Assembly: GCA_036172245.1 (NCBI GenBank)
Contig: JAYWIR010000033.1
Coordinates: forward strand, 620,001-684,000
Source: Raillietiella orientalis
Taxonomy: Eukaryota
DNA length: 64,000 nt
Direction: 5' to 3'
In this document: positions 24,731-27,700 of the stretch, one piece after another
Layout of the letters: each line of letters begins with the position of its first letter
Position numbering within the stretch: position 1 is the first letter of the stretch
Notes under the pieces: model-generated
Seen by the model: only the letters and a program-made list of their open reading frames with translations
Databases searched by the model: none
Told to the model about the DNA's origin: nothing
Made by a program: the position numbers and the translations under genes

Positions 24731-24763
<33 letters not shown>

Positions 24764-24774
24764 CCTTGGATGAC
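24690..24774 (-). pseudogene. 28S rRNA: Two short antisense 28S pieces joining copy C to copy D
   Basis: 24690-24709 GTTACTCTCGGCATTTACTC vs GTTACTCCCGCCGTTTACTC (reverse complement of 9650-9669); 24710-24774 is the reverse complement of the CATC..CTATCTA segment. Confidence 0.82.
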
Positions 24775-27700
24775 GGACGTGTCTAGCCGGAGCTCCCGCG
24801 CGCATCAGTGTGCAACTGCTGCTAGTGCAGTTTTTTAAGTGGTGACCCCCAGTGATTTTTCGTTCCGCAAACCATAGGCCCACAGTGAACCTTTCCACCA
24901 ACTTTTGTGCCACTGTGGAAAATTTTGTGGTCTCAGTGGACAATTTCGTCTCCCGCCTGTGTGCTGCCATGGCTCAGACCAGAGAGCACACTTGTCGGGA
25001 AGGTAAGAGGGATTGATCGACGGAACTGACCGCTCGGGTCCTCACTACGTCGCCCTTATTCCCATTCCGAAACTTGGAACCACGGTGGTCGACCACAGGG
25101 ATCGACCACCTCGATTCCGTGATCTCCTTTGTTCCTGCCCTTTGCGCGTGAAAAAGTAGCGTCCCCACCGAGCGATCTCATTGGTCGACTCGGCGAACTC
25201 GCAAGCTCATCGGCCGACTTGCTTCCGTCCACGTGACTGAGTGAAGCGTCGCGCGGCATTTTTCAACGATGCCGCCGTCGCAATGCACCCTATCCATGGA
25301 ACGGGAACTGTGGATTTCTTACGCCACAGACGTCCCCGTGCCTTGTCCCCTGCCAGACTGTGCCTTTGCGACCGTTGCAAGCGACTGTAAAAATCGCGTG
25401 CGCAACTTCAAAGCGCACATGAACCGAATCCATGGTGTCCACATCCCAGCAGTACATTTCTTTTGTACAAGCTGATATAAAAGTGAGAGCATGAACCAGG
25501 TACTTTGCCATCACCGATGCCTCAACTCCCCAGTGCAGCTCCCAGAAATGATTACTGCTCTTAAATACAAGTGCCCCAAGTGTAGTGCCTCCTTTGGTCG
25601 TCCCTCCCTTAGGAAAGCACACCACAAATGGAGACACTTAAACATGGACCGTGCGTACGGTGCGGCAAATGAGGCACACGAGGACTTTGGCCCATCGACG
25701 AACCTCCCACATTCGTGAGATGAAGACGACTTTATCCACTCCTCGTCCAGTTCTGCCGATACTACTGCACACCAGAGTAACTGGTTTGGACTACAGCCTC
25801 CTCAACGCCACAGCACACCCAGACATGGGCCTGGAAATCCTTCTATGAACGTGCGCACAACGTGCCTGCAAACTCCATCAGCCGCCACATCGCTGATTGA
25901 TGAAGACCTGTCTTCCGACAACAGCTGTCCGCAGGACGCTCAGCTGCTCTCACCCACCATACTTGCAGGAACCAACCCCCTGGCACCGATAATCGGGGTA
26001 ACAGCGCGATACCAGTCACTAGTACTGGTGACACCTCTGTCCGCTGCCGAGATCGAGCAATTCACCCAGCCACGACTGCCCCAGCACTCTCCTCACTCTC
26101 CGGCCAGGACTGAACACCATTCCCTTCTCTCGGGGCATTCCACACTGACGGTGGCCTCTCCCTCACAAACTGCTATGGACTTGCTGCAGGAGCTGTCACC
26201 GAGGGAGACAGTGTATGTCAACGTCCCACGCTCGCCCCCTCCGTCACCGCCAGTCCACCCAGCGTACGTACGGGCAGTCGAATCCAGCCGGAGACGACGT
26301 AGGCCCATGATCCCCCGGTTTGAGCGCCTCATACGGAACATTCCAAACCGTGTGACTAGTAACCATAGCGTTCCGGCTGAGCAAACTGACTCGACACAAC
26401 CGAGGCGCGTGCTAACCGCACGATCTCCACCTTCAATAGCCCCGGCGCGCTCGCGTAATGAACCGCAACGCGCGCGTCAGACCATTGACAGAGTACGCCC
26501 CCCTGGTAGGCACATAAACAGGCGTCGGGCTATCCGCCAGATCATGGACGATAATCCCACTGTCTGCACAGCGGACCCAGAACATATTCTTCGGCACTTC
26601 ACCATCCTGTTCAGTGCAACACCCAGCTTTCGCCCTCTCTCATGGAGTGCACAATTAGGCCCCTAACATGAGGAAGTTGACCTCTCTTCCTTTTACGGAG
26701 GCTGAGATCGCCAACTGCTCAAGGCAGTGCGAGGACACAGCGCCAGACGCCGATGGAATCCCATACTCTTCCTTCCGCAAAGTGGACCCTGAGTGTCGGT
26801 TTTTGTGTGCCATGTTTAACCTTTGTTGGAACCATCGGCGAATACCGGCGGAATGGAAAGAATCCAGAACGACCCTCATCCCAAAGGCGCACACCCAGGC
26901 TACTGAGGACGTATCCCAGTTTCGTCCGATAATTGTTAGCCGCACAATAGGCAAAATATTCACCAAATGCGTTGCCCGCCGGGTAAGGGACTGGATACTG
27001 CGAAACAACATTCTTGGCCCACATCAAAACGGCTTCCTCCCTTTCGATGGGGTCCTTGAGCACAACTTTATGCTAGCGCACTTGCTCGAGTACAGCGAAC
27101 GCCACCATCGAACTGTATGTGCTGCCTGGCTCGACTTAAAGAATGCATTCGCATCTATCCCGCATTCGCAGCTCCTGTGTTCCCTCCAATGTGCGGGTGC
27201 CGGTGACCGATTTGTGGAACTCGTGCGTGAAATGTACACAGACAACACAACACAAATCGTAACGTGTGCCGGTCTATCACAACCGATACACATATGCCGA
27301 GGTGTGCAGCAGGAATGCCCGCTATCTTGGCTCCTCTTTGACATTGCAATAGAGTCTATCGCAATGTCAAAGAGCCAATGTGCCAAGGGATTAAACAGCA
27401 TGTCACTGGGATCAAGGTGCTCGCGTACGCGGATGACCTCGTCATACTCTCAGAGGATGCCCAGACATTGCAAGCGGCGCGGAATGCGGCAGGCTCCATG
27501 GCTGATCGCCTGGGCCTCAACATGAATGCCAAAAAATGCTCGTCCCTTCACTACGATCCCCGGACTCCCAGGACTCTTGGTCGTGAGCGATTTCAAGTAG
27601 CGGGTGAACCCATCCCCGTACTCAACGACACAGGTACCTATAGCTACCTGGGAAAGCCCGTGGGCTTCGATGCCATGCACAGCCATGCGCTCGAAGATGA

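Follow-up and report, generated by a model that had tools for sequence, protein, structure and literature searches.

The DNA analysed here is a stretch of 64,000 nucleotides from Raillietiella orientalis (contig JAYWIR010000033.1 of assembly GCA_036172245.1, positions 620,001 to 684,000; hereafter the window, in whose own coordinates all positions are given). It is decayed, repeat-rich eukaryotic DNA with fragments of 28S ribosomal DNA (rDNA), and it contains four copies, A to D, of an R2-like retrotransposon of the type without long terminal repeats (non-LTR). The Rfam family LSU_rRNA_eukarya matched the plus strand at 18133-18851 (223 bits) and at 9123-9802, and by Rfam the 28S sequence on this strand covers 9123-9670, 15174-15415 and 18002-18851; the open reading frames (ORFs) of copies C and D are on the minus strand. 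In copies A and B this is reversed, with the element on the plus strand and 28S on the minus strand, so that the element is antisense to 28S in all four copies. Copy C (9671-15172, minus strand) is 5502 nt long and keeps both junctions, with 28S on either side: the sequence upstream of the insertion at 9123-9670 and the downstream sequence at 15201-15415, both in sense on the plus strand. Copy B (19275-24688, plus strand) is full length, and the downstream part of 28S (19025-19246, 28S sense being the minus strand of the window) lies at its 5′ end. Copy D (15421-18000, minus strand) is 3′-truncated within the zinc-finger region and is flanked by downstream 28S (18029-18851, plus strand, sense, by Rfam). 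Copy A (24776-28368, plus strand) consists of a 5′ untranslated region (5′UTR), a zinc-finger region and a reverse transcriptase (RT), and is ended at about 28368 by an AT-rich element, called element X below; its 5′ flank is 38 nt of downstream 28S in antisense reading (24710-24747).

The junctions of copy C define the insertion site. Its 3′ end (..GAGCAAATAAA) adjoins 28S ending in ...GGGAGTAACT, at position 2264 of the Rfam model, and similarity to 28S sets in again at its 5′ end with CGTCATC, the CGTC being at model position 2293. The 28 nt of target at model positions 2265-2292, ATGACTCTCTTAAGGTAGCCAAATGCCT, are missing, and they include the canonical R2 site; the methods section of PMC11601368 confirms the canonical 28S target sequence. 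The 3′ end of copy B (..GGCAATAGAA) is joined to antisense 28S at the same 28S base as that of copy C, and the 5′ junction is identical in all four copies. An R2-type insertion between TTAAGG and TAGCC in rRNA orientation was therefore not what we found, the junctions being at 2264 (3′ end) and 2293 (5′ end). A previous interpretation of this DNA, made without database searches and referred to here as the sequence-only reading, had argued that an antisense element cannot use read-through by RNA polymerase I (Pol I). Both the Rfam placement and the strands of the ORFs bear this out, since Pol I read-through of 28S cannot yield sense RNA of an antisense element; the target deletion that it mentioned is also real, at 28 bp. 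In addition, the orientation and the junctions together imply that the nick that primes first-strand synthesis must lie in the sense strand of 28S, opposite to the situation in canonical R2. We are highly confident of the antisense position in 28S, together with the fixed junction and the 28-bp deletion. No antisense R2 relative is described in the available text of PMC5035012, PMC13188248, PMC13580325 or PMC4640811, or in the other literature searched (supplements excluded).

Judged by its sequence, the element in copies A to D is an R2-like non-LTR retrotransposon with an RT, a CCHC motif and a restriction-like endonuclease (RLE). These copies and a further copy, E, are decayed, and their ORFs remain only as fragments; those of copy B include zinc fingers, RT, CCHC and RLE. 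The Pfam domain RVT_1 was matched in four ORF fragments downstream of the junctions. Among solved structures, the best matches of the RT fragment were the R2 proteins 9nl3 and 9dou (best E 9.5e-24), whereas the match to the LINE-1 ORF2p structure was weaker (E 1e-13). The C-terminal fragment matched residues 917-1030 of R2Bm (8gh6) with an E-value of 6e-07, and the CCHC and PD..D endonuclease region was aligned. We used as the mark of the R2 clade an RT followed by a C-terminal CCHC knuckle and then by a restriction-like endonuclease with PD..D/ExK, and this is the order found here. At the N-terminus, finger motifs of the CCHH type were seen in the translations, with sub-threshold Pfam zinc-finger matches only; in these decayed copies, no Pfam match to a Myb domain was obtained in the element ORF fragments, and the N-terminal region matched none of the R2 N-termini among solved structures. 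The nearest named proteins, at 38-43% identity, belong to a tick (Rhipicephalus) and to spiders (Nephila and Caerostris), so that the host is probably an arthropod.

We also compared the copies with each other in the 28S flank (-230 to -1) and in the body (+29 to +900), counting from the first base of the leader described below. The identity between copies B and D is 96% in the flank and 79-82% in the body; between B and C the values are 88.5% and 75-79%, and between C and D they are 89% and 72-78%. The step in identity is placed at the junction. This indicates that the copies are not duplicates of one insertion, and fits the insertion of diverged elements into similar 28S copies. On this comparison, the four copies look like independent insertions, and the identical 5′ junction would then have arisen at least three times. 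The fixed 5′ junction proposed by the sequence-only reading is thereby upheld. Between copies B and A there is a tandem joint (24689-24747), in which only 21 nt of upstream 28S, antisense and degenerate, adjoin copy B at its 3′ end (24689-24709), followed by the 38 nt of downstream 28S and then the leader of copy A. This joint could be a template-jump product that records the RNA ends, or may have arisen when two occupied rDNA units were brought together by a large deletion. Copies D and B are arranged head to head (17413-19862), with 28S in sense at 18002-18851 and in antisense at 19025-19246, forming an asymmetric palindrome, and a small perfect inverted repeat is found between them near 18930-18960. 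Copy E (31616-36826, minus strand) belongs to the same antisense R2-like family; its 3′ flank is not clearly 28S, and it may be an insertion outside rDNA. It was considered as a full-length comparison outside rDNA and rejected, because it is 5′-truncated at about +765.

On the plus strand, positions 24745-24782 read antisense 28S (...GGGAATCTCGTTAATCCATTCATGCGCGTCACT...) and then CCTTGGATGACGGACGTGT. The sequence-only reading had the 28S similarity end at CACT; instead, in the Rfam alignment and against the target given in the methods of PMC11601368, it runs to GATGACG, at +28. Each copy thus begins with a 28S-derived leader of 28 nt (+1 to +28), which in copy A is ATTCATGCGCGTCACTCCTTGGATGACG (24748-24775). 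Together with the motif that overlaps its end, the leader occupies 19247-19281 in copy B (plus strand), and 15166-15200 in copy C and 17994-18028 in copy D (both minus strand). At +17/+18 all four leaders depart from 28S: on the element strand, AA stands in the Rfam consensus as well as in the published target (UAAUU in 28S sense), but the leaders of A, C and D have CC and that of B has GC. Because this variant is common to independently inserted copies, the leader appears to travel with the element, and the element RNA would include at least part of it. We therefore regard a 28S-derived leader carried in the element RNA as probable, as far as sequence comparison can tell. The uniform junction and the propagated variant support a fixed, homology-guided 5′ junction of the kind modelled in the available sections of PMC3774820 (Eickbush et al. 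2013). According to these sections, sense R2s that have a ribozyme similar to that of hepatitis delta virus (HDV) cutting about 28 nt upstream in 28S keep a 28S tag of about 28 nt in their RNA, form uniform junctions via pairing between cDNA and target, and propagate junction variants. The elements described here resemble them in having a leader of 28 nt, identical junctions and a common CC variant, and the suggestion of the sequence-only reading that the leader guides 5′ joining by homology fits this precedent. However, in those R2s the tag is in sense and is cut by a ribozyme from a Pol I co-transcript, whereas here it is antisense and putatively made by transcription initiation.

The leader is also the place of a pair of motifs that resemble the initiator (Inr) and the downstream promoter element (DPE) of RNA polymerase II (Pol II) core promoters. 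The Inr is described by the strings TCAKTY and BBCABW, and the sequence (C/G)CATTC at the start of the leader fits NCAKTY and BBCABW. Its A, taken as +1, lies at 24748 in copy A (CCATTC, 24746-24751), 19247 in copy B, 18028 on the minus strand in copy D (CCATTC in all three) and 15200 on the minus strand in copy C, which has GCATTC, with GC rather than CC before the A. GGACGTG starts at 24775, 19274, 15173 (minus) and 18001 (minus), which is +28 in all four copies, 27 nt past the A. The fixed spacing of GGACGT reported by the sequence-only reading is accordingly exact to the base. The octamer GGACGTGT (+28 to +35; 24775-24782 in copy A, 19274-19281 in B, 15173-15166 in C and 18001-17994 in D) is invariant in the four copies, and the 28S-like sequence ends with its first G. 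It matches at eight of eight positions the consensus R-G-W-C-G-T-K-Y, which the available text of PMC1636488 gives as the extended DPE of the Drosophila non-LTR elements Doc, F, G, I and jockey, alongside an Inr consensus of D-TCA-K-T-Y-G. On both strands of the window we counted 500 NCAKTY and 22 RGWCGTG sites, so that about 500 x 22/128000 = 0.09 pairs per window are expected at one offset. The pairs at offset 28 were only these four, and the other 29 offsets (15-44) gave two in total. Thus a pair somewhere in the window would be unremarkable; what is rare is for it to fall exactly where the element-specific bases of a retrotransposon begin. The constant spacing adds no evidence, because all four copies have one 5′ junction. 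Whether the pair is a working Pol II core promoter is, in our estimate from these motifs, a little short of an even bet.

The sequence-only reading had described this arrangement as a chimeric promoter, in which 28S supplies the Inr and the element supplies the DPE. The Inr-like motif does lie in 28S-like sequence; the part of the claim that needs changing is the fresh supply of this motif by the target, since at least +17/+18 is element-borne. Given that 28S homology extends to +28 and that the variant travels with the element, the Inr is more likely to be in an element-carried leader than to be supplied afresh by each target. Therefore, if the Inr/DPE pair works, an internal promoter in an element-borne, 28S-derived leader describes it better than a chimera of target and element. 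Taken as a whole, the earlier interpretation is partly supported.

Several features downstream of the leader resemble those of an mRNA. A Kozak-like ATG (GCTGCCATGGCT) is found at +222 in all four copies (24969-24971, plus strand, in copy A), and from about +378 conservation in the frame of this ATG is of the coding type, at 63-67% compared with 40-45% in the other frames. Eleven codons past the ATG, copy A has a 96-nt segment (25003-25098, plus strand) running from AAG/GTAAGA to CACAG/G. It contains in-frame stops, preserves the frame and is less conserved than its flanks, and past it the zinc-finger ORF follows in the same frame; copy D has lost the acceptor AG by mutation. This segment is a candidate for a spliceosomal intron retained in a non-LTR element. 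At the other end, AATAAA forms the last element bases in copies C (9676-9671), E and F and is degenerate (AATAGAA) in copy B; these terminal bases are at 9671-9676, 31616-31625, 3888-3893 and 24682-24688. Because it consists of the very last bases, a poly(A) signal here would direct cleavage into the flanking antisense 28S. None of these features, neither the ATG and the coding frame nor the 96-nt segment and the AATAAA, proves a Pol II unit. An in-frame TGA at about 25242 in copy A (+495) is present at the same codon in copies A, B and D and reads CGA in copy C. It lies just upstream of a conserved methionine (..S/T-M-A/P-P-S..), and could have arisen by parallel CpG decay, or be an ancestral stop that divided a short upstream ORF from the main ORF. 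In the 5′UTR (24830-24950 in copy A, +85 to +200) there are four to five conserved CAGTG blocks (TTCAGTGGTGAC, CCCAGTGATTTTT, CACAGTGAACC and GTGTGG/CAGTGGAC), which may be factor-binding or alternative initiator-like sites.

The element was compared with several known systems. Like canonical R2 (R2Bm, R2Dm and the avian/turtle R2Tg and R2Pm), it has CCHH-type fingers at the N-terminus and, after the RT, a CCHC knuckle and a restriction-like endonuclease, and it targets the same few dozen 28S bases. As described in the accessible parts of PMC13188248 and PMC2718515, canonical R2 inserts in 28S sense between TTAAGG and TAGCC, has no internal promoter and depends on Pol I. Unlike it, the element reported here has a reversed orientation, a priming nick placed after GGGAGTAACT on the sense strand and a deletion of 28 bp; no ribozyme and no Myb domain were detected in these copies. 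The element also has an ATG, an AATAAA at its 3′ end and a start that resembles Inr/DPE. The jockey, Doc, F, G and I elements of Drosophila are described in the available text of PMC1636488 as having a TATA-less internal promoter that starts transcription at the first base, with R-G-W-C-G-T-K-Y about 28 nt downstream. Our element has a putative counterpart that fits this consensus at eight of eight positions and has this spacing. However, those elements are of the type with an apurinic/apyrimidinic endonuclease (APE) and have no target-derived leader, whereas the element described here is of the RLE type and has its Inr-like motif in 28S-derived sequence. Changes of target are known for R2 relatives: R8 and R9 are the only ones given for the R2 superclade in the parts of the 2016 paper PMC5035012 that we cite. 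Opposite orientation in 28S is described for R1-lineage elements of some insects in passages of PMC2718515, where it is read as a sign of an own promoter; the present element shares this antisense position and is R2-like.

Based on these observations, we propose that an R2-like element inserts antisense into 28S rDNA. A nick behind ...GGGAGTAACT in the sense strand of 28S would prime first-strand synthesis, and the element's 5′ end would join 28 bp further on, with the observed loss of 28 bp, among them the canonical R2 site. The element RNA would carry the 28S-derived leader at its 5′ end, and the end of the cDNA would pair with the target, giving the same 5′ junction each time. We infer this pairing, which is supported because the element-specific CC variant occurs in independent insertions. 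Since Pol I cannot transcribe the element, it presumably runs as a Pol II unit, and an own Pol II promoter is plausible on the motifs described above. In this proposal, CCA(+1)TTC, where the leader begins, and GGACGTGT at +28 would form a TATA-less core promoter of the jockey/Doc/F/G/I type, and from +1 on the promoter would be copied with the element, so that the target gives only the two bases before +1. The mRNA would have a 5′UTR of 221 nt, the Kozak ATG, possibly the 96-nt intron, and the AATAAA with 3′ cleavage in the flanking antisense 28S. We consider an antisense R2-like element with a 28S-derived leader and its own Inr/DPE Pol II promoter to be the best overall explanation of these sequences, with a probability of roughly 45%. 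A broader version is more tentative and, in our view, a good deal less than even money: that an element of the R2 lineage flipped in 28S, dropped Pol I co-transcription and the ribozyme, and became a small Pol II gene, whose leader would serve as Inr, start and homology arm, whose own first bases would serve as DPE, and which would use AUG, intron and AAUAAA.

The promoter is the part of this proposal that is most open to another interpretation. The leader and an own promoter may be real while the motif pair is coincidental and transcription starts elsewhere, for example at the CAGTG blocks of the 220-nt 5′UTR; GGACGTG would then simply be where the element-specific sequence begins, or belong to a terminal hairpin. 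Several results point this way and weigh against the promoter that we propose. At the expected frequency given above, about 9% of windows this long would hold a strict pair at some offset. The match to TCAKTY is only five of six in copies A, B and D (C at -2) and four of six in copy C (G at -2). DPE promoters are also described with a motif ten element (MTE) consensus and a G at +24, and both are absent at the copy A junction. GACGTG extends a predicted RNA hairpin, the antisense version of a 28S hairpin, by pairing with CATG (CAUG:CGUG), which offers another reason for its presence. Because all copies are decayed, the conservation of the motifs is mostly due to descent, and the invariance of the octamer is only mildly unusual, given that 23 of the 269 other eight-column windows of the 5′UTR are invariant as well and that several blocks at +100 to +260 are more strongly conserved. 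The terminal AATAAA is by itself weak evidence of a Pol II unit. Related junctions gave no support either: the pattern of CCATTCATGCGCGTCACT, 1-30 nt and GGACGTG had no matches in the metagenome, viral and genome contig collections, and when three pieces of 28S from the window were compared by blastn with the 80 RT-bearing stretches retained out of 180 confirmed in a protein-guided metagenome search, no 28S-like DNA came up. The best locus of that search has 38% identity and just 17 nt upstream of the match, and the protein-guided search of viral contigs yielded no loci. On the other hand, the pair coincides exactly with the 5′ junction, the place where arthropod non-LTR elements have their internal promoters (PMC1636488, available text), and a match at eight of eight positions has a chance of about 2e-4 at one fixed position. 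In addition, the CC variant common to independent insertions could not be passed on by an RNA that started past the leader. We therefore regard a coincidental pair as unlikely, while still the most serious competitor of a promoter in the leader.

A different 5′ end would follow if the RNA were cut from, or started within, a longer antisense rDNA transcript, with its end upstream of the A (for example at -38) or made by a ribozyme whose P1 includes the 28S-derived ATGCGCG. The joint between copies B and A, with 38 nt before +1 and 21 nt after the 3′ end of B, is the remnant expected of a template jump, and if it is one, the RNA 5′ end would be at -38 and not at +1, which also counts against our proposal; a large deletion that fused two occupied units of rDNA, however, could explain the joint equally well. 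ATGCGCG (+5 to +11) can pair with CGCGCAT (+52 to +58) beside a CGG/CCG mini-hairpin, and cleavage about 28 nt into 28S is frequent among R2 ribozymes, according to the available sections of PMC3774820. Against this, the P1-like stem is without supporting compensatory changes, and a descriptor for HDV-like ribozymes, run from -80 to +600, matched copies A and B not at all, copy C once and copy D three times, with no common position and with 1.8 matches per shuffled sequence. An Rfam search of 14900-15500 (E up to 1) returned large-subunit rRNA only and no ribozyme. Processing of a longer transcript thus seems improbable to us. We also considered that there is no recurrent junction and that the four copies are segmental duplicates of one rearranged insertion in decaying rDNA, in which case orientation and junction would be biologically uninformative. 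The region is indeed a repeat graveyard with inverted and direct duplications, and copies B and D, which lie head to head, have a common flank variant, GACCTT for GTGGTT. Nevertheless, the flanks are far more alike than the bodies in every pair measured, with the step at the junction; the 3′ junctions of B and C are at the same 28S base; and copy C differs from A, B and D by about 25% in the body. This makes duplication of a single insertion very improbable.

The window contains other mobile and virus-like sequences. Element X (28369-31615, plus strand), which is fused into copy A, is a second R2-like element and is AT-rich (about 44% GC). Its ORF pieces of 491 and 385 amino acids contain several zinc fingers and an RT and are 38-43% identical to tick and spider proteins; its ends have no 28S flanks here, and a short related fragment is found at 3475-3587. 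An 11-nt 28S-like sequence, AAGAGAGTCAT, at 28352 was considered as a leader on element X and rejected, because it belongs to homologous coding sequence of copy A. An uninterrupted ORF of 1212 amino acids (41132-44770, plus strand) has the domains Exo_endo_phos, RVT_1 and zf-RVT, as in ORF2 of APE-type long interspersed nuclear elements (LINEs). It lies within direct repeats (41.1-52.3 kb) with spacings of 4472 and 4291 bp and identities of 78-92%, and its best database relative is just 30% identical. At 1279-2241 on the minus strand, an open frame of 320 amino acids matches Pfam Viral_Rep (PF02407, E 1.1e-10) and is probably a relic of a circovirus-like replication protein in host DNA.

R2 is the textbook case of a promoter-less retrotransposon that lives on Pol I read-through, and it is now being engineered for site-specific gene insertion; to our knowledge, it is always found in sense orientation. 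If our proposal is true, then the element would show how target recognition and strand choice are re-wired in the R2 protein family, with the same 28S sequence used and the other strand nicked first. It would also show how a promoter-less element gains expression by Pol II, and how a target-derived 5′ leader can double as a start site and a homology arm.

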